Source: Parcubacteria group bacterium Athens0714_12 (GTDB lineage Bacteria; Patescibacteriota; Patescibacteriia; UBA2591; VMGY01). Taken from it: a DNA stretch of 55,364 bases. The translations under genes and the position numbers were made by a program. Within the stretch, counting starts at the first letter, position 1, and the number at the start of each line of letters is the position of its first letter. The stretch lies in NCBI GenBank assembly GCA_007378955.1, contig VMGY01000004.1:1-55364 (forward strand). The letters run 5' to 3'. Below, in pieces: positions 8,553 through 50,620 of the stretch. The notes under the pieces were generated by a model. That model searched no databases and was not told where the DNA came from. It saw only the letters and a list, made by a program, of their open reading frames with translations.

Positions 8553-10136
8553 ATGAAATTATTGCCATCTGACATTGTTTTAATTTTACCGCCGCGGCGC
8601 TGGAAAGAACGCCGTTATTCATTAGGATTATTATTTATTTCCGGCTATTTAAGGAGCAATGGCTATGATAATATTATTTTAGAAAGAAAATTATTGGCTG
8701 GCCGCGAGTATGATAATAGCCTTGCCAGAGAATTGCTTTTAAAAAAAATAGAAGAATTAAAGCCAAAAATTATTGCTTTTACCGGCACCATTCTTGAAAC
8801 TAATGAAATAATAGAACTGAATAATAAAATAAAAGAAAAGATAGAAGTTTTTAGCATTGTCGGCGGTCCTCAAGCCAGTGTTTGCCCGGAAGAATTCGTT
8901 AAAAATAATTTTGACGCCGCGGCAATAGGGGAAGGGGAAGAGACGATTTTAGAATTGGTTAGGGCGATAGAAAACAATGATTCCGATCTGGGAAAAATAA
9001 AAGGTATTGCTTATAAAGATAAAGAAGGAAATATCCGCGTTAATCCGCGGCGCGAACTGATGGATATTTCTTTTTTGCCTTTGCCTGCTTATGATAAAAT
9101 TGACATGGCTTACCATACCGCAATTACTAATGAAGTGGTCAGAGGCATTCCGGTCAAGCCGGCAATGGTGATGTCCAGCCGCGGCTGCCCGTTTCTTTGC
9201 AGTTTTTGCTCTACTTATAAAGTTTTTGGCCGAAAAGTAAGATACCGCAACCCGGAAAGCGTGAAAAAAGAAATTGAATTTTTGAAAAATAATTACGGCG
9301 TGGAAAGCATCTGGTTTTCCGATGATACGATGACTATTAACAAAGAACATCTTTTAAAAATTTGCCGTATAATGAAAAACTTGGAATTATTTTGGACAGC
9401 CCAAGCAAGAGTTGATTTAGTTGATGAAGATGTTGTTAAGGAAATGAAAGAAAGCGGCTGCCTGCAATTGGAATTTGGCATAGAATCCGGCTGTCCGCGC
9501 CTTTTGAATGAGATTATTATTAAACAGATTAATTTAGAGCAGGTTAAAAAAGCGGTTGCTTTATGCCGAAAATATAAAATCAGGGTTTTAGCCAATTTTA
9601 TGATGGGCTTTCCCACAGAAACAAAAAAAGAAATGGAGGCGACTTTTAATTTAGCCAAATCACTAAAGGCCAATATTTATTCCTTTTCCATTCTAACTCC
9701 ATTGCCCGGCACTGATATTTTTAACAGATTTTTTAAAGATGAAATCATCATGAATGATTACAAGGATTTAAGTTTTTTTATCGGCAAGAAAAAATTCAAT
9801 AAATCAGAAGTAGATGATTTAAAAAAATTAAATGACATCTGGCGCAAAAAATTATGGCTGCAAGTGCGCATTAGAAATCTTACCCACCCTTTTTTGTTTA
9901 TAAAAATATTTTTTAAGCTTAGCCATAAAAAAGAAAGAATAAAATTTGTATTTAATAAAATCAAAAAATTAATAAAATTTAATAAGCATAAAAGCATGGG
10001 CTCGGAAAAAAGATTTGGTTACGAGTGGGGGAAATACCATCAGATGGATTCCAATTACGAAATCCAGTTTAAAAAATGGATTTCGCCTTTCAGCCAAGAA
10101 ATTTTTAAAGATAAAAAAGTTTTAGACGCTGGCTAA
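8553..10136 (+). CDS. cobalamin-binding-domain (class B) radical SAM enzyme #1; the reading frame runs on into the 5' end of a duplicated methyltransferase
   Basis: N-terminal Rossmann-like domain (IVGGPQAS ... IGEGEETILELV), then SRGCPFLCSFC (CX3CX2C). From codon 482 (ATG 9996) the sequence is MGSEKRFGYEW..., the start of the methyltransferase duplicate, ending at TAA 10134-10136. Confidence 0.8.
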   Translation: MKLLPSDIVLILPPRRWKERRYSLGLLFISGYLRSNGYDNIILERKLLAGREYDNSLARELLLKKIEELKPKIIAFTGTILETNEIIELNNKIKEKIEVFSIVGGPQASVCPEEFVKNNFDAAAIGEGEETILELVRAIENNDSDLGKIKGIAYKDKEGNIRVNPRRELMDISFLPLPAYDKIDMAYHTAITNEVVRGIPVKPAMVMSSRGCPFLCSFCSTYKVFGRKVRYRNPESVKKEIEFLKNNYGVESIWFSDDTMTINKEHLLKICRIMKNLELFWTAQARVDLVDEDVVKEMKESGCLQLEFGIESGCPRLLNEIIIKQINLEQVKKAVALCRKYKIRVLANFMMGFPTETKKEMEATFNLAKSLKANIYSFSILTPLPGTDIFNRFFKDEIIMNDYKDLSFFIGKKKFNKSEVDDLKKLNDIWRKKLWLQVRIRNLTHPFLFIKIFFKLSHKKERIKFVFNKIKKLIKFNKHKSMGSEKRFGYEWGKYHQMDSNYEIQFKKWISPFSQEIFKDKKVLDAG

Positions 10137-10715
10137 GAGTTAGTCGCTTTTGATTTTGACCAACGGAGCGTGGGAGCGGCAAAAAAAAATTTATCGCCTT
10201 ATCCTAACGCGAAAATAGAATTTAAAAGCATTTACGATTTGCCGCGGGAAAATGAATTTGATATCGCTTTTTGCATTGGCGTGATTCATCATTTGGAAAA
10301 TCCGGATTTGGCGATTAAAAATTTGATTCGCGCCGTTAAGCCCGGAGGAATAATTTTAATTTGGGTTTACGGCCATGAAAGCAATGAATGGATAGTTAAG
10401 TGGATTAATCCTTTAAGGATTCATTTAACCAGCAAACTGCCATTGCCAATTCTCCATTTACTCACTTATTGTTTTAGTTCGCTTTTCTGGATTTTTCTCA
10501 AATTATTTCCCCAAAAATCTTCTTATTTGAAGCAAGTTTCTCAATTTAAATTTTTTCATCTTCATTCCATAATTTTTGACCAATTATTGCCAAAAATCGC
10601 TCGTTATTATAAAAAAGATGAAGCTGAACAGCTTTTAATAAAACAAGGATTAAAAAATGTCGGCATTTCCCATCCTAATGAAAATAGCTGGACAGTTTAC
10701 GGTTATAAAAGTTAA
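9996..10715 (+). pseudogene. duplicated SAM methyltransferase disrupted by a 45-nt deletion that creates an in-frame TAA and removes SAM-binding motif I
   Basis: Collinear with 7737-8501 and roughly 85-90% identical at protein level by eye. The 45 nt corresponding to 7876-7920 (encoding CGMGRNSYWLLKYGA) are missing, and the junction reads GGC TAA GAG at 10131-10139. Confidence 0.75.
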
Positions 10716-11489: not shown

Positions 11490-11508
11490 AAATTTAATTT
11501 AAACGATT

Positions 11509-13311
11509 ATGAGAGTAGCTGATTATATTTTTAAATATTTGGCCGATTACGGAATTAAGCATGTTTTTTTGGTTTCCGGCGGCGGAGCGATGCATTTGAA
11601 TGACGCTTTAAAAAAAGAGAAGCGGATTAAATACGTCTGTTATCACCACGAACAGGGAGCGGCGATTGCCGCCGAAGGCTATTCCAGAACTAATGGAGAA
11701 TTGGCGGTTGTTAATGTGACCTCGGGACCCGGAGGAACTAACGCGTTAACAGGTGTTATCGGGCAGTGGCTTGATTCTATCCCTGTTTTATATTTATCAG
11801 GCCAGGTAAAATTTGAGACGACAATCGCGTCCGTTCCTGGAAGTTGTTTGCGCCAGCTTGGCGATCAAGAGATAAATATAATTGATATAGTCAAGCCGAT
11901 CACCAAATACGCGAAGATGATTACTGAACCTGAGACTATAAAAGCTGAACTGGAAAAAGCCGTTAAAATTGCCACCTCGGGAAGGCCCGGGCCGGTATGG
12001 TTGGATATTCCTTTGAATGTTCAAGGAGCATTGATTGATGAGCAAAAACTTAAAAGCGAGAATATAGATAATACTCAATTGGCGGTGGATGATAAGATTA
12101 TCTCGGCAGTTGCTGAAGAATTGCAAAAAGCCGAGAGGCCGGTGCTTATTGCCGGGCATGGCATCAGGATCGCTAAGGCGCGGAATCAGTTTTTGGAATT
12201 AGTTGATTCTTTAAATATTCCGGTGGTAACGACTTTTAATGGATTTGATTTAATTCCTTCTGAATCCAATAATTTTATCGGCAGGATCGGGACACTGGGC
12301 AGTCGCGCGGGAAATTTTGCTTTACAAAACGCGGATTTTGTCCTTTGTCTCGGGACAAGGAATAATATAAGACAAATCAGTTATAACTGGACCTGTTTTG
12401 CCAGGAACGCGAAAAAGATTATTGTTGATATTGACGAAGCGGAGTTAAATAAAAAAACAGCGAAAGCTGATATTTTAGTTCATCTGGACGCGAAAGTTTT
12501 TATTAATGAACTATTAAAAAAAATACCTAAAGATTTTCGTATCGATAAGGCGTGGTTGGAATGGTGTCTCGCGCGGAAGAAAAAATACCCCGTTGTATTA
12601 GATGAGTATAAAGCGCGGAATGAAAATTGTCTGCACCCATATTTGTTCATTGAAAAATTAACAGACAAATTAGATGATGACGCTATTATAGTAGCGGGAA
12701 ATGGGACCGCCTGCGTGGCTTTGTTTCAGGCCGGTATTGTAAAACCCGGACAACGTATTTTTTGGAATTCAGGCTGCGCGGCAATGGGGTACGCGTTGCC
12801 CGCTTCTATAGGCGCGGCTTTCACGGGAAATCAGGAAGTGATTTGTATTGAAGGAGATGGCAGTATTCAGATGAATATTCAGGAATTGCAAACTATTAAA
12901 CATAATAATTTGCCGGTAAAAATATTTATACTGAATAATCAAGGCTACCGGTCAATAGAACAAACCCAAGCAACATTTTTCAAAGGCGACTTTATCGGCT
13001 GCAACAAAGAATCAGGGGTGTCTTTTCCGGATAATTCAAAATTAGCCGATTTATATGGTATGGAGTTCTTTAAAATCAATTCAACTGACAATATGGAGCA
13101 ACAAATTGATAATGTTTTAGCTTATAAAGGGGCGGCAATATGTGAAGTTGTTTTGGACCGTAATTATATATTCTCGCCCAAATTATCATCCGAAAGAAAA
13201 GCTGACGGAAGCATGGTGTCAAAACCATTAGAAGATCTTTGTCCTTTTCTTGAACGCGAAGAATTTTATTCAAATATGATTGTTAATGATGAGGAGGTGG
13301 AAAATGTCTGA
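11509..13311 (+). CDS. thiamine-diphosphate-dependent enzyme, acetolactate-synthase-like (candidate YerE-type sugar branching enzyme)
   Basis: N-terminal GGGAMHL ... YHHEQGAAIAAEGY ... VTSGPGGTN. The ThDP motif GDGSIQMN...NN has exactly 24 residues between GDG and NN. Confidence 0.8.
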   Translation: MRVADYIFKYLADYGIKHVFLVSGGGAMHLNDALKKEKRIKYVCYHHEQGAAIAAEGYSRTNGELAVVNVTSGPGGTNALTGVIGQWLDSIPVLYLSGQVKFETTIASVPGSCLRQLGDQEINIIDIVKPITKYAKMITEPETIKAELEKAVKIATSGRPGPVWLDIPLNVQGALIDEQKLKSENIDNTQLAVDDKIISAVAEELQKAERPVLIAGHGIRIAKARNQFLELVDSLNIPVVTTFNGFDLIPSESNNFIGRIGTLGSRAGNFALQNADFVLCLGTRNNIRQISYNWTCFARNAKKIIVDIDEAELNKKTAKADILVHLDAKVFINELLKKIPKDFRIDKAWLEWCLARKKKYPVVLDEYKARNENCLHPYLFIEKLTDKLDDDAIIVAGNGTACVALFQAGIVKPGQRIFWNSGCAAMGYALPASIGAAFTGNQEVICIEGDGSIQMNIQELQTIKHNNLPVKIFILNNQGYRSIEQTQATFFKGDFIGCNKESGVSFPDNSKLADLYGMEFFKINSTDNMEQQIDNVLAYKGAAICEVVLDRNYIFSPKLSSERKADGSMVSKPLEDLCPFLEREEFYSNMIVNDEEVENV

Positions 13312-14950: not shown

Positions 14951-16087
14951 ATGAATTTCCGAAATTGCCATTTATGTAATAAGGAACTTTCCCCTGAGCC
15001 AGTCCTTGAATTAAAAGGGATGCCTAAGGCTGCCCAATATTATCCGGAAAAGAATGAGTTTGCGGATGATAAAGGAATAACCTTGATAATATGCCAATGT
15101 TCAAATTGCGGTTTGGTACAACATCGTATGAGGCCGGTGGAATATTTTAAAGAAGTAATCACCGCCGCGTCCTTATCGGAAAAATCCAGATTATCCCGGT
15201 TGAATCAGATGAAGGAGCTTGCCCAGCGGTTTGGACTTCATGGCAAGAAGGTTTTAGATATTGGCACTGGCAAGGGAGAAATGCTGGATGTTCTGGAAGA
15301 AGCGGGATTTAAAGCCGCGGGAATTGAGGCTTCACCGGAATCAGTAGAGATAGGAAAATCTAGCGGGCGAAAAATGATTAAAGGATATATCGGGGATGCG
15401 GACAAGATAGAGGGTGGTCTCTTTGACGCGTTTATATCATTAAATTATCTTGAACATTTGCCCGAACCGGGGCGTATTATCAGAAACATATACAAGAATT
15501 TAACTGCCAAGGGGGTAGGATTTGTCACGGTTCCGAATCTTGAGTATTTATTAAAGACAAAATGTTTTTACGAATTCGTTGCCGACCACCTTTCGTATTT
15601 CACTAAAAAAACCTTAACCTATGCTTTTGAGGCAAATGGTTTTGATGTTTTAGAATGCTATCCCATTAATGAAGACAACGATATCGCGGCAATAGTAAAA
15701 AAGAAAACCGCGTTAGATATTTCCAAGCAATACAATGAGACAGAAGCTCTGATAAAAGACCTGCAAAAAATTATCGCTGAATACAAATCAAAAAATAAAA
15801 AAGTGGCAGTTTGGGGCGCAGGCCACAGGACGCTGGCACTGCTGGCATTAAGCAAGGCAAATGACATTGAATATATCATTGATTCGGCAAAGTTTAAACA
15901 AGGGAAATTTTCACCCATTACGCATTCAATAATTATGCCCCCTGAATATTTAAATGAAAAAAAAGTAGATTTAGTGATCGTTATGGTGCCGGGGCTTTAC
16001 CCGGGTGAAGTTTTGAAATCGCTCAATAATATGAAGTTAGGCATTGATACCGCGGTGTTGCGTGATAACAAAATTAAGTTTATTTAA
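14951..16087 (+). CDS. NDP-hexose C-methyltransferase (TylCIII-like)
   Basis: N-terminal zinc-ribbon CHLC...CSNCGLVQ, motif I VLDIGTGKGEM, and a C-terminal Rossmann-like domain (VAVWGAGHRT) typical of sugar 3-C-methyltransferases. Confidence 0.6.
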   Translation: MNFRNCHLCNKELSPEPVLELKGMPKAAQYYPEKNEFADDKGITLIICQCSNCGLVQHRMRPVEYFKEVITAASLSEKSRLSRLNQMKELAQRFGLHGKKVLDIGTGKGEMLDVLEEAGFKAAGIEASPESVEIGKSSGRKMIKGYIGDADKIEGGLFDAFISLNYLEHLPEPGRIIRNIYKNLTAKGVGFVTVPNLEYLLKTKCFYEFVADHLSYFTKKTLTYAFEANGFDVLECYPINEDNDIAAIVKKKTALDISKQYNETEALIKDLQKIIAEYKSKNKKVAVWGAGHRTLALLALSKANDIEYIIDSAKFKQGKFSPITHSIIMPPEYLNEKKVDLVIVMVPGLYPGEVLKSLNNMKLGIDTAVLRDNKIKFI

Positions 16088-16112
16088 AGCTTATAAAAAT
16101 AATAATAAAAAA

Positions 16113-17168
16113 ATGCAAAGAACAAAGATAGAAAATAAAAACAGAAGCAGATTACAGGACAAAAAACCATTAGCATATGAAAAGATAATTAAACATCCGG
16201 AAAAGATTAAAAATAAAGAATGCGTCGCTTTAATTCAGCTGCAATATAAATATGCTTGCAATTTCAAGTGCAAGCATTGCGCCATTGAGAGATTTAAGCA
16301 AAAAGATGGCAGACTTTTATCTGTTTCAGACGTTAAACGAATTGCGGATCAGGCCGATGCAATGGGTTTGGCAAGCATTTGTATTTCCGGGGGCGAACCG
16401 CTGATTTTTCCAGAGCTAAAGGATATTATTGACGCAATAGGTCCTGATAGATTTGTTATTAGTATGGATACAAATGGATGGCTCCTAACAGAAGAAAAGA
16501 TAAAATGGTTAGTGGAAATAGGAGTTGATAGAGTTCATTTAAGTATTGATGGTCTTGAATCCAATCATGATATGTTTAGAAATGCAAAAGGGTCATGGAA
16601 AAGATGCATTGAAGCTATAGATTATTGCAAAAAACATGGCCTTGGCGTTATTATCAATATTGTTGCTACGAAAAGCTTGATTGCTTCCGGCGAATTGATT
16701 AAGCAATTGGATTTCATAACTCAATTTGGACAACATGCCAGTATAATTTTTGCGAAACCTACCGGAGCTTTTGAGGAATATAAGGATGAAATATTAGATA
16801 CAAAAGATATCGCGTACATCCAATCGTTACATCAGTCGTCAAATGGAAAATATAATACTTCAACCCATCTATCCCCAAATTGCGGATATGAATTCGGTTG
16901 TATGTGCTTTAAAAGACATCTTTCAATCACCGCTCATGGCGATATATTGCCATGCCCATGGATTCCAATATCAGTTGGCAATATTTTTAATGAAGATTTG
17001 GAAACTGTGATCAAGCGTGGCTTGGGCATAAAGTGGTTTTCTTATGATTGTAAATATAGTTGCTTGAGCGGCAACAGAGATATGTTATTCTATAAAAATA
17101 TTATGCCTCAAATAGAACAATCAGATGCTTACCCCGTTGACTGGAAAAAAATTAAATGGGGGGATTAA
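16113..17168 (+). CDS. radical SAM enzyme with Cys-rich SPASM/twitch-like C-terminal domain
   Basis: CNFKCKHC (CX3CX2C), GGEPL, and a C-terminal CGYEFGCMC ... GDILPCPW ... CKYSC. Start chosen at ATG 16113; the longer ORF from 16044 overlaps the upstream gene. Confidence 0.75.
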   Translation: MQRTKIENKNRSRLQDKKPLAYEKIIKHPEKIKNKECVALIQLQYKYACNFKCKHCAIERFKQKDGRLLSVSDVKRIADQADAMGLASICISGGEPLIFPELKDIIDAIGPDRFVISMDTNGWLLTEEKIKWLVEIGVDRVHLSIDGLESNHDMFRNAKGSWKRCIEAIDYCKKHGLGVIINIVATKSLIASGELIKQLDFITQFGQHASIIFAKPTGAFEEYKDEILDTKDIAYIQSLHQSSNGKYNTSTHLSPNCGYEFGCMCFKRHLSITAHGDILPCPWIPISVGNIFNEDLETVIKRGLGIKWFSYDCKYSCLSGNRDMLFYKNIMPQIEQSDAYPVDWKKIKWGD

Positions 17169-17273: not shown

Positions 17274-18923
17274 ATGGAAAAAATATTGTTTGTAATTCCG
17301 CCCAATATGGATTATAATAGATTTGTTAATCCTGGTTTTAACGAGCGTGTTACTGTAAAAAAATCTGGAAGATACGGAAGCCCTATTACAGATATGCCTT
17401 TGGGTATAATTTCATTGAGCGCGTATTTAAAAAAGCACGCCGAGGCAGAGATAAAACTGATAGACTTTAATATTCTGCTTAATAAACTGGAAAGCTTCAA
17501 TTATAATTCTTTTGTTTCATTGTATCGTGATTTTCTTACTGCAAATAATTTGCATGGATATGCCCCGGATATTATAGGAATATCTGCACTATTTACAACG
17601 GGATACTATAATATGATTGATATTGCTAATGTGGCGCGGGATTTATTTCCTAAGTCCCTGATTATTGCCGGCGGAGGAGTGCCAACTAACCTATTTAAAA
17701 GAATTTTTACCGAGTGCAAATCATTTGACGCCCTTTGTTTTGGCGAAGGTGAAAAACCTTTGTTAGAGCTTGTAAAGGCAGATGACAAAATGGAACTTTT
17801 AAAAAATCATAAAGCATGGATTACGAAAGAAAAAATTGAATCTCAGGATTCACCTAAATATGACTTTATTCATGATCTTGATGAAATACCGTTTTATGAT
17901 TATAGTATTTTAGATTTAGAAGCTTATAGATTAAGCCCAACTGTAACAAATTATGCTACTTTTAAATCAAACAGTAGTCTTTTCCATTATATGACTTCGA
18001 GAGGATGTCCGTATTGTTGTTGTTTTTGTGCTTCACATACGGTTCATGGCAGGAAGATGCGTTACCATGGCATTAATCGAGTAAAAGAGGATTTTATCCG
18101 CTTAAAGGATGAATTTAAGGCGACGATAATTAATTTTCAAGATGATCATCTTATGGCGGATAAAAAAAGAGTTCATGAGATTATAAATATAGCTAAGGAA
18201 GTAGGGTTGCAACTCTATTTCCAAAATGGTATAACAATGCGTTCCCTTGATAGGAAAATGCTGGAATCCATGAAGAGCGCCGGGGTTACCGATCTTGTAT
18301 TGCCTATTGAATCAGGCAGTAATAGGGTATTGCGTGATATTATGCATAAACCTATTGATTTGTCTATTGTAAAACAGGTAGTTAATGATTGTCGGCAATT
18401 AGGCATAGATACTGATGCCAATATCCTAATAGGACTTCCGGGAGAAACAAAACAGGATATTGAAGATACGCGAGTATTTTTAAAATCATTGGATGCAAAC
18501 TGGTTTAGGATTGTTGTGGCGACACCGCTTGTTGGCAGCGAGATGTTTAAAATTTGTATAGAAAAAAATTATTTAAGCAGTGATGATGTTGTCTGTGATT
18601 TTAAAAAAGCAATTGTTAGTACTGAAGATTTCACAGCAGAATATATAGAACAGACAGCTTATTCGTTAAACATTGAAATTAATTTCGTGGAAAATAGTGA
18701 TTTCAGATTAGGGAATTATAAAAAAGCACTCGAGAGATTCAAAAATACTATTAAAGTAAAAAACGATCACGCATTTGCATACTATTTTGCCGCGAAATGT
18801 TATAAAAAGATAGGGTTAGATAGTGAGTATCAAGTTTATAAACAAAAGTATCAGGAGTTAATAGAAAAATCTGTTTTTTGGCAAAACTATGCAACTCAAT
18901 TTAATATTTTTCCGCTGAGCTGA
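17274..18923 (+). CDS. class B (cobalamin-domain) radical SAM enzyme #2 with TPR-like C-terminus
   Basis: IAGGGVPT ... FGEGEKPLLELV, SRGCPYCCCFC, and a helical C-terminal repeat region (GNYKKALERFKNTIK ... AKCYKKIG). Confidence 0.8.
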   Translation: MEKILFVIPPNMDYNRFVNPGFNERVTVKKSGRYGSPITDMPLGIISLSAYLKKHAEAEIKLIDFNILLNKLESFNYNSFVSLYRDFLTANNLHGYAPDIIGISALFTTGYYNMIDIANVARDLFPKSLIIAGGGVPTNLFKRIFTECKSFDALCFGEGEKPLLELVKADDKMELLKNHKAWITKEKIESQDSPKYDFIHDLDEIPFYDYSILDLEAYRLSPTVTNYATFKSNSSLFHYMTSRGCPYCCCFCASHTVHGRKMRYHGINRVKEDFIRLKDEFKATIINFQDDHLMADKKRVHEIINIAKEVGLQLYFQNGITMRSLDRKMLESMKSAGVTDLVLPIESGSNRVLRDIMHKPIDLSIVKQVVNDCRQLGIDTDANILIGLPGETKQDIEDTRVFLKSLDANWFRIVVATPLVGSEMFKICIEKNYLSSDDVVCDFKKAIVSTEDFTAEYIEQTAYSLNIEINFVENSDFRLGNYKKALERFKNTIKVKNDHAFAYYFAAKCYKKIGLDSEYQVYKQKYQELIEKSVFWQNYATQFNIFPLS

Positions 18924-40067: not shown

Positions 40068-41341
40068 AATTTTTATTTATTACTAAGCCGATGAAGTATG
40101 AATTTTTGGGATTGATGTATCTATCCCAAATTTTAAAAGACAATGGAGTAATAGTAAGACTGCATACTATCGGCCATGATTTAAAACAGGTACTTGAATG
40201 GCAGCCTGATTTTATTGGTTGCGGCGTAATGACCGGTTCTCAAAATGATTATCTTAATTATTTTAGAATGCTCAAAGAGAAAATGAATTTTATTTCTGTG
40301 TTTGGCGGTCCTCATCCCACTTATTTTCCAAAAATTATAGAAGAAAATTGTGTTGACTATGTTTGTCGAGGAGAAGGCGAGAGAGCTATTTTGAAAATTT
40401 TACAAAAACCAAAGGAGAAAATTATTTTAGAACCATTGATTGAAGACCTTGATAAAATTCCTTTTCCCGATAGAGAACTTTTATATCAAGATAAAAAACA
40501 TCGCAATAATCCAATTAAGCATTTTATTGCCAGCCGAGGATGCCCCTATAACTGCCCCTATTGTTACAACAACACCAATATGAAATTATATCAAGGGCAA
40601 AAATGGACTCGTTTCAGGTCTTCTGAAAATGTTATTCGCGAGGTTAAAGAAGTAATTAATAAATACCCGACAAAATTTGTATATTTTCAAGATGATACTT
40701 TTATTATGAATAAAGAGTGGATTCTTAAATTTTGCAAATTATATCAAAAAGAAGTGAAAATGCCCTTTCATTGTATCGTCAGATTAGATTTATTAGATGA
40801 AGAACTTGCTTTAAATCTTAGTCAGGCGGGTTGTATTTGCGTTCGTTGCGCCGTGGAAAGTGGCAATGATTATATCCGACAAAATATTTTAAAAAGAGGG
40901 ATGACGAAAGAACAGATAAAAAAGGGGACGGAGCTTTTGCGCAAATATGGTATTGCTTTTGTTCTCCAAAATATTTTAGGATTGCCTCAAGGGGGATTAA
41001 AAGAAGATTTAGAAACTTTAGATTTAAATATTGCTTGTAAACCTACCTTGGGTTGGTCTAGTATTTTTCAGCCTTACCCAGGTACAGAATTAGGCGATAT
41101 GTTCCCGGAAGTTTCCATTGACGATATTAACGATAATTTTTATGATGATTCCATTTTAAATATTTCAGAAAAAGAACAAAGGCTACGTTTGCAAAAATTA
41201 TTTGGTTTAATTTGTCATTTTCCTATTTTGCGCGTATTTTTGCCAATATTGCTTAATTTAAAGTTTGATAAATTATATAAAAAATTATGGAGATGGAATA
41301 ATAAGAGGGCGGATAAAATATTATATAAAGGAACATTATAA
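40064..41341 (+). CDS. class B radical SAM enzyme #5
   Basis: VFGGPHPTYF ... CRGEGERAILKIL, SRGCPYNCPYC. ATGA overlap with the GT9 gene. Confidence 0.75.
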   Translation: MKFLFITKPMKYEFLGLMYLSQILKDNGVIVRLHTIGHDLKQVLEWQPDFIGCGVMTGSQNDYLNYFRMLKEKMNFISVFGGPHPTYFPKIIEENCVDYVCRGEGERAILKILQKPKEKIILEPLIEDLDKIPFPDRELLYQDKKHRNNPIKHFIASRGCPYNCPYCYNNTNMKLYQGQKWTRFRSSENVIREVKEVINKYPTKFVYFQDDTFIMNKEWILKFCKLYQKEVKMPFHCIVRLDLLDEELALNLSQAGCICVRCAVESGNDYIRQNILKRGMTKEQIKKGTELLRKYGIAFVLQNILGLPQGGLKEDLETLDLNIACKPTLGWSSIFQPYPGTELGDMFPEVSIDDINDNFYDDSILNISEKEQRLRLQKLFGLICHFPILRVFLPILLNLKFDKLYKKLWRWNNKRADKILYKGTL

Positions 41342-43650: not shown

Positions 43651-44462
43651 CAAAAATAAATAAAGAAAAACTTTTTGAATTTTATAATCAAAACGAAAAT
43701 TATTTTAAGTTAGCCGAACAGGGCAATGTTGAGGGCGCGATTTTTCCCATTCATAAAGAAATTTTGGATAAATGCAAAAAAAGAAAAGGGCTGATTGTTG
43801 ACTTAGGGTGTGGAACGGGTTTAAATGTTTTGGCTATGGCCGGGCAAAATAATTTTTGTTTGGGCTTGGATATTTCCCAATTAGCCGTTAACCAGGCTTT
43901 AAAAAAAGCAGAAGGCAAAAAAAATATAAATTTTAAACAAGCTAATTTAGAACAGTTGCCCATGAAAGACAATTCCGCGGAAGTTATCACTTCTTTTTTT
44001 GTTTTTGAACATTTATTGAATTTGGAAAAAGTTTTACAAGAAATAGACAGAGTTTTGAAGCCAGGCGGGGAAATATTTTTGCTTTGCCCGAATTTTGCCA
44101 GCCCGTTCCGTTCAGCCCCGCCATTGGGCGGCGTTAGAAAAATAAAAATGCTCAGAAAGGCGTTATTTTTAATTTGGAGAATGATGGAAGTTTATATTTT
44201 CAGAAAGAAAAATTTTTATTTAAAAAAAATTGATTTATCTCTTTTACGTTTAGATAGCCGAAAATCGGACAGCGACGCGGTTAATGAGCCATGGTCGTTT
44301 GAATTGCGGAATTATTTTAAAAGAAAAGGATATTTTATTGAAGTTAAAACCTGGGTTTCTGATATTAAAACCAAGATAGAGCAGCTCTTTTCTCATTTTT
44401 ATTTTATGCCTATAATAAAACATTGGGGGCCTATTTGTTATTTATATGCCAGAAAAAAATAA
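43632..44462 (+). CDS. class I SAM-dependent methyltransferase
   Basis: IVDLGCGTGLNVL, GLDIS, VFEHLLN, LKPGGEIF. Confidence 0.8.
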   Translation: MEKIEMTKINKEKLFEFYNQNENYFKLAEQGNVEGAIFPIHKEILDKCKKRKGLIVDLGCGTGLNVLAMAGQNNFCLGLDISQLAVNQALKKAEGKKNINFKQANLEQLPMKDNSAEVITSFFVFEHLLNLEKVLQEIDRVLKPGGEIFLLCPNFASPFRSAPPLGGVRKIKMLRKALFLIWRMMEVYIFRKKNFYLKKIDLSLLRLDSRKSDSDAVNEPWSFELRNYFKRKGYFIEVKTWVSDIKTKIEQLFSHFYFMPIIKHWGPICYLYARKK

Positions 44463-45690
44463 AAAACAATTAAAAATTCTTGTTTTAACGCATTTATTTT
44501 CTGATATTGCTGTTGGCGGAGAGGCCAGGGCTGTTTGGGGATTCACTAACGCTTTAGCGGAGATAGGTCTTGATGTTTACGTGGTTTCATCTTTTGTTGA
44601 AACGGTTGAAAGAAATTATCATCCCAAAATAAAGGTTTATCAGGTGCCTTTCCCAAAAAGAAGAACTAATTTTTGCCAATTAGATATGTTTAAAACTTTT
44701 TTATATGCTTTGCCGATTATTTTTTTAAAAAAAATAGATATTATTCATTTAATGCCCACTCAAGGGCCGCATCCATATGCTTATTTTAAGATTAGGCCTT
44801 TTGTTTCCACGGTTGATGTTAATTGGAATTACGAAGATACTAAGTTTAGGGATGACTTAATTTATGATCGCCGGCAAAAGAGAGAAGAATTAGGCCTTTT
44901 AGAAAAAGAATATGATTTTTTTGATAAAGTTATCGGCAAATTAGCTTATTATTTTTTTAAAATTTTTAGAATGAACCAAGAATTGCCTAAATCAGTAGAT
45001 CTTTGCGCTTACCGACACATTAAATTATTAGATTGGTTTAAAAAGGAAAAATATCCTTCTCAATTTGTTTATATTCCAGTGGGCGTGGATACTAACATGT
45101 TTTCTCCTGTGGTTAAGACCATTTTTTCTAAAAAAGAAAATCTCACTTTTTTATTTATTGGTTCGGTGGCCAAGAGAAAAGGAGTTGAATATTTACTTAG
45201 AGCTTTTAATATTCTTAGCCAAAAATATACGAACATTGAATTATTGATTGTTGGTCCTGGCGCTCCGGCAACAATAGATTTTTTTAAGAAAGTAATTGAA
45301 CCAACCGCTAAAGTAAAATTTCTTGGACAAGCAACTGGTTATAATTTAGTTCGTTATTATAATTGTGCCGATGTTTTTGTATCGCCGTCCGTGGGGATAG
45401 ATTTAGGAATTAATAAATCAGTTGTTGAAGCTATGGCTTGCGCTAAGCCAGTAATAGTTTCTCGCGCCCATGATACAGGAGTAATTGATAATAAGGGCGG
45501 TTTTAGCTTTGAGCCGGGAAATATAAACCAATTAGCTGAAGTAATGGAAAAATTTATTAAAAACCCCGCCTTGATTGAATCTATGGGTAAAACAGCCAGA
45601 GAATATGTTTTAAAAAATCATGATTGGATAATTTTAGCTCAAAGAATGAAGGATGCTTATCAAAAGCTCTTGATAAATTATTTAAAATAG
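44446..45690 (+). CDS. GT4 family glycosyltransferase
   Basis: FIGSVAKRKGVEYLL ... FVSPSVGIDLGINKSVVEAMACAKPVI. Confidence 0.75.
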   Translation: MPEKNKKQLKILVLTHLFSDIAVGGEARAVWGFTNALAEIGLDVYVVSSFVETVERNYHPKIKVYQVPFPKRRTNFCQLDMFKTFLYALPIIFLKKIDIIHLMPTQGPHPYAYFKIRPFVSTVDVNWNYEDTKFRDDLIYDRRQKREELGLLEKEYDFFDKVIGKLAYYFFKIFRMNQELPKSVDLCAYRHIKLLDWFKKEKYPSQFVYIPVGVDTNMFSPVVKTIFSKKENLTFLFIGSVAKRKGVEYLLRAFNILSQKYTNIELLIVGPGAPATIDFFKKVIEPTAKVKFLGQATGYNLVRYYNCADVFVSPSVGIDLGINKSVVEAMACAKPVIVSRAHDTGVIDNKGGFSFEPGNINQLAEVMEKFIKNPALIESMGKTAREYVLKNHDWIILAQRMKDAYQKLLINYLK

Positions 45691-45787
45691 ATTAAACTAA
45701 TTTTAGTTTATTTAAACCATATGGTTCTTTGAAATATTAATAATTGCTTCATATTTTTTGAAGATAAACTTTGAAAGGAGAATAAAA

Positions 45788-47002
45788 ATGAAACAAATGC
45801 CAAGTATTTTATTGATTAATCCAAGAAGCGCTTTTTTAGATTCAGATAGGGTTTTCCCGCCTTTGGGAATTTTGTATCTTAAGAGCTTTTTGGAAAAAGA
45901 GGGGATATATGTTAAATTAGAGGATGATTTTGATTTCAAAAATATTAATAAATACAAAGAATTCCATTACATTGGAATTTCTTGCACGACTCCACAAAGC
46001 AGAGAAGCTGAAATAATATTTAGAGAGATTAAAAAAAATTTTTCTTTAAAAAAAGTAATCATCGGCGGAGCTCATGCTAGTTTTTACACCGAAGAATGCA
46101 TTAAGGCCGGATATGATCATATTGTTCTTGGCGATGGCGAAAAATCACTTTTGGACATTTTAAATGGATGCAATGAAAAAATTTTAAAAAATCCAATTGA
46201 TAGTTCGAAAATGAATTCTCTGCCTTTACCGTTTAGGGATGCTGGTTTTTTATCTAATTATCATTATAAATTAGATAGTTTAAAAACTACTACCGCTATT
46301 ACTTCAAGAGGTTGCCCTTTTAATTGCGCTTTCTGCGAACATGCCAAAACAAAACCAAGATATTATAATTCAGAAAGAATCAAGCAAGAACTATCTGAGA
46401 TCTCCGCGTTAGGATATGAAGCTGTTATGTTTTTTGATGATCTTTTTGCCGTCAACCAGCGGAGAGTGGAGGAACTTTGCGATATAATTAAAGATTTCAA
46501 AATTAAATTCAGATGTTTTGGCCATGTTAAGTGTATGACGCCAAAAATGGCAGAAACTTTAGCTGAAGCAGGATGCGTTGAGACCGGCGTTGGCATGGAA
46601 AGCGGCTCCCAAGAGATATTAAATATAGTTAAATTACCCACCTCAACAGTAAAGGAGAGTTATGAATATATTAAAATTTGCCATCAGTTTGGCATTAGAG
46701 TAAAAGCTTTCTTTATGATTGGATTGCCGGGGGAAACATGTGAAACAATTAAAGAAACGGAAGAATTTATCGCAACTTCCGGCATTGATGATTTTGATTT
46801 AGTTGTTTATTATCCATATAAAGGAACTAGGATAAGAGATCATATCAAAGAATATGATATTTCCTTAATCAATGATGCCGACACTATTGGCTATTACAAG
46901 GGGAGAAAAGGAGGTACTGAAATATCGATTAGAACATCGTTTTTATCTGGGGAAGAAATTAAAAACGAAAGTGACAGAATTTTTAAAAAATACAAAAAAT
47001 AA
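45788..47002 (+). CDS. class B radical SAM enzyme #6
   Basis: Start chosen at ATG 45788 behind AAAGGAG (45774-45780). IIGGAHASFY ... LGDGEKSLLDIL, SRGCPFNCAFC. Confidence 0.8.
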   Translation: MKQMPSILLINPRSAFLDSDRVFPPLGILYLKSFLEKEGIYVKLEDDFDFKNINKYKEFHYIGISCTTPQSREAEIIFREIKKNFSLKKVIIGGAHASFYTEECIKAGYDHIVLGDGEKSLLDILNGCNEKILKNPIDSSKMNSLPLPFRDAGFLSNYHYKLDSLKTTTAITSRGCPFNCAFCEHAKTKPRYYNSERIKQELSEISALGYEAVMFFDDLFAVNQRRVEELCDIIKDFKIKFRCFGHVKCMTPKMAETLAEAGCVETGVGMESGSQEILNIVKLPTSTVKESYEYIKICHQFGIRVKAFFMIGLPGETCETIKETEEFIATSGIDDFDLVVYYPYKGTRIRDHIKEYDISLINDADTIGYYKGRKGGTEISIRTSFLSGEEIKNESDRIFKKYKK

Positions 47003-47132: not shown

Positions 47133-47894
47133 ATGAAAAAAATTATTGTAACAAACAGTTGGGATGATAACCACCCCAAAAATTTGCGTTTACTCGAGCT
47201 TTTAAATAAATATAATTTAAAAGCTACTTTTTATTTAAATAAAAATCATCTTTATAAACATTCAGAAAGTGAAATTAAAAAAATCGCCCAAAATCAGGAA
47301 ATCGGCGCTCATACCTTAACTCATCCAGATTTGGATAAAATCAGCCCAGAGAATGCTTGGCAGGAAATAAAGGGCTCAAAAGATTATTTTGAAAATATTT
47401 TAGGGCAGCAAGTAAAAATGTTTGCTTATCCTCGAGGATTTTTTAATCAGGATTTAAAAAATATTGTCGCTAAAGCGGGATTTTTAGGCGCGCGGACCGT
47501 TAAAACATTTTGTCTTGAGCCGCCGAAAGATTTTTTTGAATTTGGCGCCACCCTTCATTTATATCCTTTTCCTTTCCGGAAACGGGACGCGCGCAATTAT
47601 CATTTAACAAGATTTTTATTTCAGCCGTTGCAAAGGTCGTTCAAAGGAATAATAAAATTAAAATTGCCGCTTGATAGTTTTTTTTCCTGGCAAAATTTGG
47701 CCAAAAATCTTTTTGATTATGTTTATAGAAATGGCGGCATCTGGCATTTATGGGGTCATGGCTTTGAAATTGAAAAATATGACATGTGGGGAGAATTAGA
47801 AGATATTTTCAAATATATTTCCCATAAGCCGGAAATAAAATATTTATCCAATAGCGAAGTTTTAGAAAATGAAAATTCTAATTTTATCCGATAA
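47133..47894 (+). CDS. polysaccharide deacetylase (CE4 family)
   Basis: NSWDDN (motif 1 variant), IGAHTLTHPDL (H-x-x-x-H motif 2), AYPRG. Confidence 0.65.
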   Translation: MKKIIVTNSWDDNHPKNLRLLELLNKYNLKATFYLNKNHLYKHSESEIKKIAQNQEIGAHTLTHPDLDKISPENAWQEIKGSKDYFENILGQQVKMFAYPRGFFNQDLKNIVAKAGFLGARTVKTFCLEPPKDFFEFGATLHLYPFPFRKRDARNYHLTRFLFQPLQRSFKGIIKLKLPLDSFFSWQNLAKNLFDYVYRNGGIWHLWGHGFEIEKYDMWGELEDIFKYISHKPEIKYLSNSEVLENENSNFIR

Positions 47895-49134
47895 TTTTTA
47901 TCCTTATAATAAAGGCGGCGTGGAAGTTGTTTCTTATCGTTTAGCCGAACAATATTTAAAAGAAGGGAATGAAGTCGTGGTAATTTGCGCCACCGGCAGA
48001 AAAGAATCAATTGGAAAGGAAATTTTAAACGGCCTGGCGATTGAACGCTTTTACAGTCGGGATTATCCGCGTTTTCGGGCTTATGCCGGTTTGTTTAATT
48101 TTTTCAGCGCCCAAAAAGTCAAAAAAATTTTATTGCGGGAAAAACCAGATATTATCCACGCGCACAATCTTCATCAAAATATTTCTTTTTACGCGTTAAA
48201 ATTGATAAAAAAATTAAAATTTTCTTTAGTTTTGACCCTTCATGACTGCACTTCTTTTTGCTATAAAAAATTTGATTGCTATTTAAATCCTGATAATTTG
48301 TCTTTGGCGCCAAAATATTCTTACCAGCACAATCCATGGAAATGCTTACTTTGCCAAAAAAGGCGCTATTTTCCTTTGAGAAATTTTTTAATCAGGTATT
48401 TTTTGAAATTTCCCGACAAAATTTTCGCTGTTTCCGAAGAGCACCAGAAAGTTTTGCAAGCTAATAAAGTCAGGTGCGATGATTTTATTTATAACGGCAT
48501 AAACAATGAAAGTTTTAATTGTTCGGGAGAGCGGCAAAAGATATTTTTGAAAAAATTTAATCTTGAAAATAAAAAAATTATTTTAGGCGCCGGCAGATTG
48601 CATCCGGCCAAAGGATTTGAATGCGCGATTAAGGCATTGCCAAATGTTTGCAAAAAGGATAAAAATATTGTTTTTGTTTTGGCGAGCCAAAAAAATAATT
48701 ACGCGGATTATCTTTTAAAACTTGCCGCGCAAATGGGTGTTAAGGATAATTTTTTGATTACCGGCTGGCTTGAGGGTGATGATTTGAAATCCGCCTTTTG
48801 CGCCAGCTTGCTGGTTGTTTATCCGTCCCTTTGCTTTGACACTTTCGGCCTGGTGAATTTAGAAGCGATGGCCGCCAAAAAACCGGTGATTGCCACTTGC
48901 TTCGGCGGTTCAAAAGAAGTGGTTTTAGACGGAATTACCGGCTATGTAATTAATCCTTATAACACGGATGATTTCTCGGAAAAAATATTGAAAATTTTAA
49001 AAGATGAAAAATTAGCCAAAGAAATGGGCCAAAAAGGATATCAAAGAGTGAAAGAAAAATTTACGATTGAACAGAGCGCGAGCAAGTATTTAGAAAATTT
49101 CAAGATTTTAATAAATAATAAATCCAATGGCTAA
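47869..49134 (+). CDS. GT4 family glycosyltransferase
   Basis: MKILILSDNFYPYNKGGVEVV ... VYPSLCFDTFGLVNLEAMAAKKPVIA. Confidence 0.8.
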   Translation: MKILILSDNFYPYNKGGVEVVSYRLAEQYLKEGNEVVVICATGRKESIGKEILNGLAIERFYSRDYPRFRAYAGLFNFFSAQKVKKILLREKPDIIHAHNLHQNISFYALKLIKKLKFSLVLTLHDCTSFCYKKFDCYLNPDNLSLAPKYSYQHNPWKCLLCQKRRYFPLRNFLIRYFLKFPDKIFAVSEEHQKVLQANKVRCDDFIYNGINNESFNCSGERQKIFLKKFNLENKKIILGAGRLHPAKGFECAIKALPNVCKKDKNIVFVLASQKNNYADYLLKLAAQMGVKDNFLITGWLEGDDLKSAFCASLLVVYPSLCFDTFGLVNLEAMAAKKPVIATCFGGSKEVVLDGITGYVINPYNTDDFSEKILKILKDEKLAKEMGQKGYQRVKEKFTIEQSASKYLENFKILINNKSNG

Positions 49135-50620
49135 AGTCGTTTTGTTTTATCCGAAATTAGAAGAAAATATAGAGGAAGGGCAAAGAATTTTATTGCCGAT
49201 GAGTATTTTGACGGTTGCCGCTCCTTTAGCGGCTGAAAGCGTTGAGGTTAAAATAATCGACCAGCGAGTGACTGACAATTGGCAAAATGTATTAATGGAA
49301 GAATTAAAAAAAGAGCCCTTGATTGTCGGCTTTTCCGTTTTAACCGGCAAGCAAATTCTTTACGCTTTGGAAGCTTCAAAAATAGTCAAAGAAAATTCAA
49401 AAGCTTTTGTTGTTTGGGGCGGGGTGCATCCCAGTTTGCTGCCGGAACAAACTTTGAAAAACGAAATGATTGATTATTTGATAATCAGGGAAGGTGAAAA
49501 ATCTTTTTTAGAACTTTTCAGATCACTTGCCAATAAAGAAGATATTTCAAAAATCAAAGGAATCGCTTGGAAAGACGAAAATAAAAATATTTATATCAAC
49601 GCCCCGCGGGATTTTATTTGTCTGGATGATTTGCCGGATATCCCATATCATTTAGTGGAGATGGAAAAATATATCGCCGAAAAAACTTATTCATCGGGCA
49701 AAGCCGGCCGGGAAATCGCTTTTTACACCAGCCGCGGCTGCCCGCATAATTGCGCTTTTTGTTATAATCAAAATTTTAATTCAAGAAAATGGAGAGGCGA
49801 GTCGGCGGGAAGAGTTGTCGCCAGAATGGAAGAATTGATAAAAAAATTCGGGATCACTTCTTTTAATATTCAGGATGATGAATTTTTTGTGGATATTAAT
49901 AGAGCTAAAAAAATTTGCCAATTAATAAAAGAAAAAAATATTAAGATTGAAATCGCTTCCTCCTGCCGGGTTGATTATATTTATTATCGGATGGACGACA
50001 TTTTTTTAAAATTATTATTTGAAGCCGGATTTAAGACTTTATTTTTAGGAGTTGAATCTGGTTCTCCAAGAATTCAGAAAATGATTCATAAAAATATAAC
50101 AAATAAGCAAGTTCTAATAGTGGCTGAAAAACTTCAAAGGGCTAAAATTAACGCTAAACTTTTTTTTATGGTTGGATTTCCCACGGAAACAGTAGATGAC
50201 ATATACAAAACGACGGATTCAATTTGGCAGATTAAAAAGCAAAATCCTTACATCAGAATTCCGCCTTGGCGGGTGTTTGTGCCATATCCAGGCACGGATC
50301 TTTATCAGCTTAGTATTAATAAGGGATTTAAAGCGCCTTACTCCTTGGAAGAATGGGCTAAATATGATTTTAATACAGTTCAATTGCCTTGGATTGCCAG
50401 AAAAGAAAAAATTATTATTAATAATGTTATTTTTTTTGTGCGTTACTTGAACATAAGAGCTAAAAAATTAAAACCAAGTTTTAAGCATTTATTATTGAAT
50501 ATTTACAGCGCTTCAGTTGATTTTCGTTGGAGATACCGTCTTTTTTTATTTTGTCCAGAGAAAGTAATAATTAAATTATTTCATAAAATATTTGATTTAG
50601 CTAAATCTTTATTTATATAA
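49127..50620 (+). CDS. class B radical SAM enzyme #7
   Basis: VWGGVHPSLL ... IREGEKSFLELF, SRGCPHNCAFC. 8-nt overlap with the GT4 gene. Confidence 0.8.
   Translation: MAKVVLFYPKLEENIEEGQRILLPMSILTVAAPLAAESVEVKIIDQRVTDNWQNVLMEELKKEPLIVGFSVLTGKQILYALEASKIVKENSKAFVVWGGVHPSLLPEQTLKNEMIDYLIIREGEKSFLELFRSLANKEDISKIKGIAWKDENKNIYINAPRDFICLDDLPDIPYHLVEMEKYIAEKTYSSGKAGREIAFYTSRGCPHNCAFCYNQNFNSRKWRGESAGRVVARMEELIKKFGITSFNIQDDEFFVDINRAKKICQLIKEKNIKIEIASSCRVDYIYYRMDDIFLKLLFEAGFKTLFLGVESGSPRIQKMIHKNITNKQVLIVAEKLQRAKINAKLFFMVGFPTETVDDIYKTTDSIWQIKKQNPYIRIPPWRVFVPYPGTDLYQLSINKGFKAPYSLEEWAKYDFNTVQLPWIARKEKIIINNVIFFVRYLNIRAKKLKPSFKHLLLNIYSASVDFRWRYRLFLFCPEKVIIKLFHKIFDLAKSLFI

Follow-up and report, generated by a model that had tools for sequence, protein, structure and literature searches.

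Radical S-adenosylmethionine (SAM) enzymes of class B, in which a cobalamin (B12)-binding domain precedes the radical SAM core, have mostly been described from pathways to antibiotics, cofactors and lipids, and there are usually one to three of them in a gene cluster. What, then, are seven such enzymes doing among the glycosyltransferases (GTs) of a predicted cell-surface glycan locus? The locus lies in a stretch of 55,364 nucleotides (the window) from Parcubacteria group bacterium Athens0714_12 (assembly GCA_007378955.1, contig VMGY01000004.1, positions 1 to 55,364), and organisms of this kind have genomes of roughly 1 Mb and almost no biosynthetic capacity. We conclude that the seven enzymes, which we call R1 to R7, and an eighth radical SAM enzyme of the SPASM/twitch type are probably sugar-tailoring enzymes, acting alongside the GTs of a polyprenyl-linked surface-glycan locus of the Wzx/Wzy type.

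Seven class B-type radical SAM enzymes and an eighth

A sequence-only reading of the window had proposed that seven open reading frames (ORFs) share a B12-binding and radical SAM architecture, and a Pfam search bears this out for all seven. In each product PF02310 B12-binding, at 39.1-56.9 bits against a gathering score of 32.1, is followed toward the C-terminus by PF04055 Radical_SAM, at 65-98 bits against 29.5. All are on the + strand. R1 lies at 8553..10136 (B12-binding 46.6, Radical_SAM 98.1 bits), R2 at 17274..18923 (44.8 and 65.1 bits), close to the SPASM enzyme and the sugar-nucleotide genes, and R3 at 28202..29587 (56.9 and 84.2 bits). R4 (29584..30879; Pfam) belongs to a subfamily that is highly conserved in Patescibacteria. 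R5 is found at 40064..41341 (44.6 and 80.7 bits), R6 at 45758..47002 with an alternative ATG at 45788 (46.3 and 78 bits), and R7 at 49127..50620 (Pfam).

On alignment of the seven sequences SRGCP-x2-C-x2-C is invariant, as are C212, C216, C219, G105 and E129, and the GG-x-H-x-(S/T) and GEGE motifs are retained. The CxxxCxxC cluster motif together with the PF04055 core places all seven in the radical SAM superfamily, and the PF02310 Rossmann domain ahead of that core gives each the class B architecture. The eighth enzyme (16044..17168, +; probable start at the ATG at 16113) has a strong Radical_SAM match (99.2 bits) and a CNFKCKHC motif. Its C-terminal tail is rich in cysteine and matches SPASM (PF13186) at 21.7 bits, borderline against a gathering score of 21.5, so that the SPASM/twitch-like tail described earlier is upheld.

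The C-terminal tail of R1 is the N-terminus of a duplicated methyltransferase, closing at an in-frame stop. The parent copy, a class I SAM methyltransferase (7737..8501, +; Pfam), has 82% nucleotide identity with approximately 9964-10715 over about 800 bp. The second copy, directly behind the R1 core, is degenerate (10170..10715, +); it lies in frame with R1 behind the TAA at 10134-10136, and CGMGRNSYWLLKYGAK, its SAM-binding motif I, has been deleted from it. In three related loci (L006, L030 and L033, by our locus handles) the R1 orthologues, with 52% identity, are intact 719-aa fusions of the radical SAM enzyme to a methyltransferase of another type.

Seven old subfamilies rather than a repeated module

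The pairwise BLAST identity of R1-R7 is 22-32%, or about 28% when they are aligned jointly, so that the description of the seven as paralogues holds at the level of the family but not of close copies. Outside the window much closer relatives exist. A search with R4 gave 709 homologues at E ≤ 1e-10, of which the 120 listed have identities of 46-74%; their sources are named as Nealson-, Buchanan-, Kuenen- and Falkowbacteria, Parcubacteria, 'Patescibacteria group' and one 'Nanoarchaeota', in keeping with the type of organism that had been supposed. R7 has a large orthologue family at 48-59% identity, and relatives of R5 at 37% identity occur in two marine glycan loci (L004 and L005). A phmmer search of 1.84 billion cluster representatives with R4 returned 6,598 matches at E ≤ 1e-30. 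The superfamily is therefore huge, and by these matches R4-like proteins are a small, unannotated part of it.

No NCBIfam equivalog cutoff is reached by any of the seven, whose top scores are 94-189 bits against cutoffs of 480-750. The highest-scoring models are HpnJ, BchE, ApyD, PhpK and Sden_1168. From the low mutual identity, the lack of an equivalog and the closer orthologues found elsewhere, it follows that R1-R7 are best described as seven old, distinct and uncharacterised subfamilies rather than a recently repeated module. Recent tandem duplication of a GT plus radical SAM module, as had been suggested, is rejected: R1-R7 are only 22-32% identical, whereas orthologues of R4, R7 and R1 elsewhere are 48-74% identical. 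One subfamily has a mark of its own, the R4 family carrying an invariant TSTPVDRWE(C/V)P loop that is a five-residue insertion relative to the other six.

Membership of individual named families was considered in turn and discarded. For HpnJ (TIGR03471) R4 scores 189.3 bits and the others 94-151 against a cutoff of 577.6, and for BchE (TIGR02026) the best score is 174 bits (R4) against 481.35. The AprD4 diol dehydratase model (NF033070) gives 75-109 bits against 500, with only profile positions of about 165-456 aligned. The best scores for PhpK (133 bits, R4; cutoff 600) and the Sden_1168 P-methyltransferase (146 bits, R2, for which it is the top NCBIfam match; cutoff 575) also fall short. ApyD is the top NCBIfam match of R1, at 172 bits against 750, and the scores for the QCMT, HpnR and TsrM equivalogs are far under their cutoffs.

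Coupling to glycosyltransferases

An initiating phosphoglycosyl transferase scoring above its family cutoff, a MOP flippase (Wzx), a Wzy_C protein and eight Leloir-type GTs are co-located in the window with RfbF/G and RfbH, all on one strand save the initiating transferase, as expected for the surface-glycan setting that the sequence-only reading had put forward. From these assignments and those of the sugar-nucleotide genes, we therefore take the window to be most of a Wzx/Wzy-type, polyprenyl-linked cell-surface glycan locus of a patescibacterium of the Parcubacteria type, holding two putative side branches of the ArnC/GT-C type besides the Wzx/Wzy route.

The gene neighbours reported for the radical SAM enzymes are indeed present. 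A GT9 of the heptosyltransferase family (39039..40067, +; Pfam Glyco_transf_9 48.4 bits) is upstream of R5, GT4d (44446..45690, +; Pfam) is upstream of R6, and GT4e (47869..49134, +; NCBIfam GT4-type matches) is upstream of R7. GT4b (31049..32167, +; Pfam) follows R3 and R4, and R1 lies between methyltransferases. A polysaccharide deacetylase (47133..47894, +; Pfam Polysacc_deac_1 85.7 bits) stands between R6 and GT4e. Overlapping stop and start codons are found (4 bp for GT9/R5 and R3/R4, 8 bp for GT4e/R7), but the locus is compact throughout and such overlaps are common in it, so they do not mark out GT-radical SAM pairs. The idea that every sugar addition is paired with a radical step fails on the count, with about ten GTs to seven or eight radical SAM enzymes, and R1 and R2 have no GT neighbour.

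Across related loci the association can be tested against shuffled gene orders (5000 shuffles). In 21 non-redundant Patescibacteria loci 46 of the 73 radical SAM genes adjoin a GT, against 34.1 ± 3.9 expected, a value reached by 6 of the 5000 shuffles. The conservation of adjacency in relatives, which had been proposed as a check, is thus seen over this set, but the window alone gives no significant excess. A GT lies within two genes of the R4 orthologue in 28 of 35 cases; a GT4a-like gene is up to two genes upstream in 13 of the 35 loci and a GT4b-like or GT9 gene up to two genes downstream in 19. The usual place of GT4a orthologues is immediately before R4 or immediately after R1. Four strings of genes are conserved: GT4a-(methyltransferase)-R4-GT4b/GT9-Wzx; R1(::methyltransferase)-GT4a; PMT_2-GT2a-methyltransferase-AsnB-GT4a-methyltransferase-R4; and, in L024 and L025, deacetylase-GT4e-B12 radical SAM.

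Radical SAM enzymes are also fused to their partners. A single ORF of 1183 aa in L039 unites methyltransferase, GT4, B12-binding and Radical_SAM domains, and the fusion recurs as the proteins P0242 and P0243, from other samples, with 74-75% identity. P0330, a protein of 2633 aa, combines a B12 radical SAM enzyme, a second radical SAM module, DUF362/Fer4, three GT4 domains and TPR repeats. PMT_2 is fused to a radical SAM-SPASM enzyme in L006 and L033, and a Gfo/Idh/MocA sugar oxidoreductase to an R4-like enzyme in L037 and P0305. Five radical SAM modules are strung together in each of the proteins P0309, whose locus also has carbamoyltransferases and short-chain dehydrogenases/reductases (SDRs), and P0320. 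Functional coupling of the radical SAM enzymes to GTs is supported by the enriched adjacency, the conserved gene strings and the predicted fusions, and most strongly by the fusions.

Run-through in gene calling was considered as a source of the giant multi-module proteins and rejected, the P0330, P0309 and L039 reading frames all being uninterrupted under translation table 11. Among the megaproteins of L126 (363-14996), L125 (194-8095) and P0320, two have five radical SAM modules (2331 and 2279 aa), and the set includes a fusion of a carbamoyltransferase to a radical SAM-SPASM enzyme as well as the 2633-aa protein with three GT4 domains.

Multiple radical SAM enzymes in other genomes

Related loci were fetched from GTDB representative genomes with an alignment of the R4 family, and a second, taxonomically broad sample with an alignment of the R7 family; class B enzymes were counted in all of them with a hidden Markov model built from R1-R7. 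The R4-family alignment gave 33 loci, almost all from Patescibacteria. Patescibacteria loci longer than 15 kb (about 21 kb) hold 1-7 class B genes with a mean of 3.5 (n=23), interleaved with GT4, GT2, GT9, methyltransferase and Wzx genes. Within 21 kb there are six each in L006 and L030 and seven in L033, with SPASM enzymes in addition. The mean in the broad sample is 1.8 (n=43), 24 of the loci being single-copy, and four to six copies are found in a few loci outside the Patescibacteria, from Elusimicrobiota, Bryobacterales, Smithella, a deltaproteobacterium and unnamed bacteria. Contigs of DPANN archaea, 28-170 kb in length, carry an equivalent mix of GT, methyltransferase, Wzx and B12 radical SAM genes. 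The layout is therefore not unique to the window; it is widespread in Patescibacteria and is seen in DPANN and other phyla. When 106 class B enzymes from 37 loci were clustered at 38% identity or more, about 30 clusters resulted, and those 37 loci hold orthologues of just three of R1-R7: R4, which was the bait, R1 and R5.

In the literature searched, which excluded subscription-only work, there was no paper on radical SAM enzymes in glycan loci of Patescibacteria (the Candidate Phyla Radiation, CPR) or on polysaccharide loci with multiple class B enzymes. This is in keeping with the view that no glycan locus with seven such enzymes was known to have been described, but the arrangement is no one-off. 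The kind of enzyme, and the tailoring of sugars by class B enzymes, are known. What appears to be undescribed is the multiplicity of the enzymes, their Wzx/Wzy surface-glycan setting in minimal-genome symbionts, the breadth over CPR and DPANN, and the GT-radical SAM megafusions.

The labels of some source genomes call for comment. A 12-kb 'Nanoarchaeota' contig (L041) has an R4 homologue of 61% identity in a gene order equal to that of L007 and L015 from Patescibacteria, a sign that the contig was misbinned or that genes were transferred between domains. Loci with a similar mix of GT, methyltransferase, Wzx and B12 radical SAM genes are carried by longer DPANN contigs, of Woesearchaeota and Nanoarchaeota and up to 170 kb (L050, L071 and L093). 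A Flavobacteriaceae metagenome-assembled genome (MAG) (L004) and a Pelagibacteraceae single-cell genome (L005) have near-identical gene order around the 37% R5 relative, which lies beside AsnB; unless the locus has been transferred, one of the two labels is wrong. The MAGs labelled 'uncultured Gammaproteobacteria' (L018, L025, L026 and L035) have R4 orthologues 48-54% identical, L018 at the least has a gene order in common with the Buchananbacteria loci L014 and L017, and these four labels look doubtful.

In two loci, both from Parcubacteria, an R4-like gene is directly upstream of a response regulator. The next three genes in L032 (9923-17001) are PilB, PilC and PilM by Pfam, and in L029 (9992-17020) the following genes match those of L032 in size and order. 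The adjacency hints at a functional link with type IV pili, or may be due to chance.

Fold and the predicted cobalamin-binding domain

AlphaFold2 models of R4 (pLDDT 92.9) and R7 (pLDDT 91.2) superpose on TsrM, OxsB, MgmA/QCMT, CysS and TokK over both domains, with TM-scores of 0.62-0.76 and a probability of 1.00, and the two-domain class B fold is thus present in both predicted structures. As a check on the N-terminal domain the result cuts both ways: the fold is that of cobalamin enzymes throughout, but the cobalamin-free AprD4 is matched equally. In sequence, AprD4 is similar only over the radical SAM barrel, and the alignment with OxsB extends over both domains; the BchE, HpnJ and QCMT profiles are matched by the N-domains of R1-R7 starting near position 20, the AprD4 profile only from about 165. 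In an approximate alignment the lower-axial N186 of OxsB corresponds to P74 in the loop of R4, with a nearly invariant W78 four residues on. The location of the R4 DRWEC-loop insertion at the region of OxsB Asn186 is suggestive only. We infer from sequences and models together that R1-R7 may bind cobalamin and carry out C-methylation.

Proposed mechanism and alternatives

Class B enzymes have precedents for action on glycosides and glycolipids in HpnJ, MoeK5, GenK/GenD1, Fms7 and OxsB (PMC9204698). By analogy, each radical SAM enzyme of the locus would use its [4Fe-4S] cluster to cleave SAM, and the resulting 5'-deoxyadenosyl radical would take a hydrogen from an unactivated carbon of a sugar that the neighbouring GT has just set on a lipid-linked intermediate. 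This intermediate could be a polyprenyl-PP-oligosaccharide; alternatively, the ArnC-like GT2 enzymes could supply a polyprenyl-P-monosaccharide for use by GT-C enzymes. The substrate radical might then accept a methyl group from methylcobalamin, as with GenK, MoeK5 and Fom3, and for several of the enzymes a C-methylation like those of GenK and MoeK5 is the likeliest reaction. Others among the seven would be likely to perform a non-methylating reaction, either a rearrangement like those of HpnJ and OxsB or an elimination like that of AprD4. Class I methyltransferases, the AsnB amidotransferase, the deacetylase and the CDP-3,6-dideoxyhexose/branched-sugar pathway would decorate the glycan further, after which it would be flipped by Wzx and polymerised or ligated by the Wzy_C-type protein. 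A polymer, a lipid or a protein, pilin for instance, could be the final acceptor.

A number of observations weigh against this interpretation, beginning with the failure to reach any equivalog cutoff given above. The 21 loci have common ancestry, so the adjacency test overstates their independence, and in the window alone four of seven radical SAM enzymes adjoin a GT2, GT4 or GT9 against 2.3 ± 1.2 in shuffled orders, which 799 of 5000 shuffles reached and is not significant. In L029 and L032 no GTs are near the R4-like genes (46% identity), whose neighbours are type IV pilus genes. The remaining points concern cobalamin. R4 and R7 match AprD4 as well as they match the cobalamin enzymes; AprD4 (6FD2) is the top PDB sequence match, and gives R4 its best reciprocal TM-score, 0.76/0.72. 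Both AprD4 and ArsL bind no cobalamin despite a Rossmann-like N-domain, and belong to the same sequence similarity network (PMC12931638, a 2026 review). Cobalamin is bound base-off and His-off in these enzymes, and because of this there is no diagnostic sequence motif for it (PMC12931638). Given the equal fold match and the common network, sequence and fold therefore cannot settle cobalamin use. No gene for cobalamin transport or processing was detected in the loci searched, the window holds no cobalamin-related gene by Pfam, and no cobalamin riboswitch or other RNA family was found in 137 kb of the window and related loci. The bacterial lineage itself is not known to synthesise B12.

Several of these facts would suit enzymes that have the class B fold but work without cobalamin in the manner of AprD4, performing radical dehydration/deoxygenation, epimerisation or oxidation of sugars in place of methylcobalamin-dependent C-methylation. 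Such enzymes would fit an organism unable to make B12, and AprD4 itself acts on a sugar, paromamine. However, all seven proteins pass the Pfam B12-binding threshold and keep the GG and GEGE motifs of the corrinoid-domain lineage, their N-domains align with BchE, HpnJ, QCMT and OxsB while the likeness to AprD4 ends at the barrel, and the best AprD4 family score is 109 bits against a cutoff of 500; we regard cobalamin independence as rather unlikely.

A substrate other than sugar has less in its favour. The enzymes might act on membrane lipids or the polyprenyl carrier, as do HpnP/HpnR and enzymes of the ladderane or tetraether kind, remodelling lipids scavenged from a host, with the glycan genes mere neighbours. 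There is weak profile similarity to the B12/radical SAM lipid-biosynthesis family TIGR04072 (58-132 bits) and to hopanoid enzymes, LPG_synthase_TM genes adjoin B12 radical SAM genes in L007 and L041, and one fusion partner is the membrane GT-C PMT_2. But every family score is far under its cutoff, the loci lack lipid-synthesis genes by Pfam, and fusions with soluble GT4 and with a Gfo/Idh/MocA sugar oxidoreductase point to carbohydrate substrates, making a lipid target improbable. The lowest probability of all we assign to modification of a ribosomal peptide or a protein such as pilin or an S-layer protein, by C-methylases like those of ribosomally synthesised and post-translationally modified peptides (RiPPs). 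The top NCBIfam match of R1 is the RiPP enzyme ApyD (172 bits), and PilB, PilC and PilM lie beside R4-like genes in L029 and L032; yet that ApyD score falls short of the cutoff of 750 bits, the window shows no family of RiPP recognition elements, proteases or transporters (with no search aimed specifically at small precursor ORFs), and it is GTs and sugar-nucleotide enzymes that dominate the context and GTs that provide the fusion partners.

Sugar tailoring alongside the GTs is thus the reading that we prefer. A broader proposal is offered tentatively: it is possible that ultra-small symbionts, the Patescibacteria and in parallel the DPANN, use batteries of class B enzymes interleaved with or fused to GTs for installing changes at the level of C-C bonds on a lipid-linked surface or pilin glycan, making the cells dependent on host-derived cobalamin. 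The glycans could then contain C-alkyl, ring-contracted or carbocyclic, or deoxygenated sugars, a chemistry for which cultured bacteria offer no known example.

A locus of more than 55 kb with seven or eight iron-sulfur and SAM enzymes, possibly B12-dependent, is a large presence in such minimal genomes, and the design recurs across Patescibacteria and DPANN. If the inferred chemistry is right, unexplored sugar structures would be expected on the surface that mediates episymbiosis and phage recognition, and there may be a hidden dependence on cobalamin from host or community. Nature would also have supplied a large and diverse toolbox of radical enzymes for modifying sugars, with some 30 clusters below 38% identity in 37 loci, and the fusions to partner GTs offer direct handles for finding substrates.

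Gene content of the window

The window has about 45 genes, all but one on the + strand, and a G+C content of 29-39%. Its GTs comprise five GT4, one GT9, two ArnC/PgfS-like GT2 and one clear GT-C (PMT_2), and the tailoring set consists of an AsnB-type amidotransferase, a polysaccharide deacetylase and about eight class I methyltransferases.

From the left, a GT-C membrane glycosyltransferase of the PMT_2 family (1008..2666, +; Pfam PMT_2 37.5 bits) is followed by GT4a (2725..4014, +; Pfam Glycos_transf_1) and by GT2a (4622..5572, +), a candidate ArnC/GtrB-like polyprenyl-phosphate glycosyltransferase (ArnC 212.6 bits over the full length, below cutoff) with orthologues 63-64% identical in L014, L017 and L018. 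The AsnB-type glutamine amidotransferase (5778..7646, +; Pfam Asn_synthase 347.7 bits; TIGR01536 524 bits, cutoff 267) has a probable role in the amidation of uronic acid.

The sugar-nucleotide block includes SDRs and a WecB-like epimerase. An acetolactate synthase (ALS)-like thiamine diphosphate (ThDP) enzyme (11509..13311, +) has three TPP_enzyme domains and scores 378 bits for TIGR00118, below the cutoff of 538; it is a candidate for a YerE-like sugar branching enzyme. The NDP-hexose C-methyltransferase-like protein at 14951..16087 (+) passes the Pfam thresholds for Methyltransf_23 and a C-terminal Methyltransf_14 domain, with the zinc-binding Methyltransf_13 domain at 18.2 bits, under its cutoff of 31.3. 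A fusion of glucose-1-phosphate cytidylyltransferase and CDP-glucose 4,6-dehydratase (21239..23176, +; TIGR02623 308.3 bits, cutoff 300.25; TIGR02622 222.9 bits) is followed by GT2b (23240..24184, +), which resembles PgfS and ArnC polyprenyl-phosphate glycosyltransferases (PgfS 224.7 bits over the full length, below cutoff), and RfbH, CDP-6-deoxy-4-keto-hexose 3-dehydrase (24190..25512, +; NF011936 680 bits, cutoff 423). The RfbF::RfbG fusion and RfbH constitute a CDP-3,6-dideoxy-4-keto-hexose route, and the region 10995-25512 also holds HAD, HpcH-like and NUDIX genes with the ALS-like enzyme and the sugar C-methyltransferase-like protein. This gene set suggests a branched-chain sugar pathway like that of YerE and yersiniose; the ALS-like, RfbH and RfbFG genes are found together in L012 too. 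A phosphonate pathway around R2, prompted by the P-methyltransferase-like match, the ThDP enzyme and the HpcH-like protein, was rejected, as there is no PEP mutase and the ThDP enzyme is of the three-domain ALS type.

Directly upstream of R3 is a large membrane protein (25502..27919, +) whose likeness to YfhO is weak and limited to its C-terminal 72 residues (Pfam YfhO 34.5 bits). A mid-locus cassette (32345-36504) encodes a CotH-kinase/beta-helix protein, a VTC-domain protein and a DUF4956 protein; VTC and DUF4956 genes are directly downstream of the R4 orthologue in L020 and L022. The Wzx-type (MOP) flippase (36605..37933, +; Pfam Polysacc_synt and NCBIfam MOP flippase) precedes GT4c (37920..39023, +; Pfam). 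Beyond R7 are an 819-aa polymerase or ligase of the Wzy_C family with TPR repeats (50659..53118, +; precomputed Pfam Wzy_C and TPR, and NCBIfam TPR and O-glycosylation-ligase-like matches) and the initiating polyprenyl glycosylphosphotransferase (53245..54621, -; Bac_transf, TIGR03025 372 bits, cutoff 295.55).

The same locus is present in GCA_007376655.1 (VMGP01000003.1, 86.8 kb) and in ENA and Logan assemblies, and in these other assemblies glycan genes extend at least 10 kb beyond the window. Gene remnants are seen at 4115-4615 and 43186-43650, a 166-aa N-terminal fragment of an SDR and a 154-aa methyltransferase fragment. GT4e is whole in the window and is two ORFs in the GCA_007376655.1 copy (L001, 17806-19016), showing decay and variation at the level of strains.

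Comparison with known systems

The closest parallel in gene order is with the synthesis of hopanoid cyclitol ether, where a lipid-linked amino sugar passes from a GT and a deacetylase, HpnI and HpnK, directly to the class B enzyme HpnJ (PMC9204698). For R2-R6 the HpnJ model ranks first or second among the NCBIfam matches, and the order GT4d-R6-deacetylase-GT4e-R7 resembles the HpnI-HpnK-HpnJ logic. The window differs in its scores (94-189 bits against 577.6), in lacking hopanoid genes, in having seven enzymes and not one, and in its carrier, presumably polyprenyl phosphate.

In chemistry the nearest counterparts would be GenK and GenD1 of gentamicin, Fms7 of fortimicin and MoeK5 of moenomycin synthesis, cobalamin-dependent enzymes that methylate unactivated sugar carbons on glycosylated intermediates (PMC9204698, PMC12931638). 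They belong to secondary-metabolite clusters with one or two such enzymes, whereas the window has seven in a Wzx/Wzy surface-glycan locus, and the comparison with R1-R7 is by description, not by sequence or family model. In the moenomycin cluster GTs, an AsnB-like amidotransferase and a class B enzyme occur together.

AprD4, the 1,2-diol dehydratase of apramycin synthesis (6FD2), has the same two-domain layout and acts on an aminoglycoside sugar; it differs in binding no cobalamin (PMC12931638), and resembles R1-R7 in the barrel only, with at best 109 bits against 500. The structural class I enzymes OxsB, TsrM, MgmA/QCMT, CysS and TokK likewise combine a Rossmann N-domain with a partial TIM barrel (TM-scores of 0.62-0.75 with R4 and R7), and OxsB contracts a sugar ring (PMC9204698). 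Identity to these is 16-22%; R1-R7 are without the extra domains of OxsB, TokK and CysS, and R4 has the DRWEC insertion.

Lastly, the two ArnC/PgfS-like GT2 enzymes, the PMT_2 GT-C, the YfhO-like protein and the deacetylase recall the ArnC/ArnD/ArnT and GtrB/GtrA/GT-C systems. Their scores in the window are under the equivalog cutoffs, and neither of those systems is known to include a radical SAM step. This ArnC/GT-C-like gene set, taken with the PMT_2::radical SAM fusions of related loci, suggests that polyprenyl-P-sugars may be tailored by radical SAM enzymes before their transfer outside the cell.

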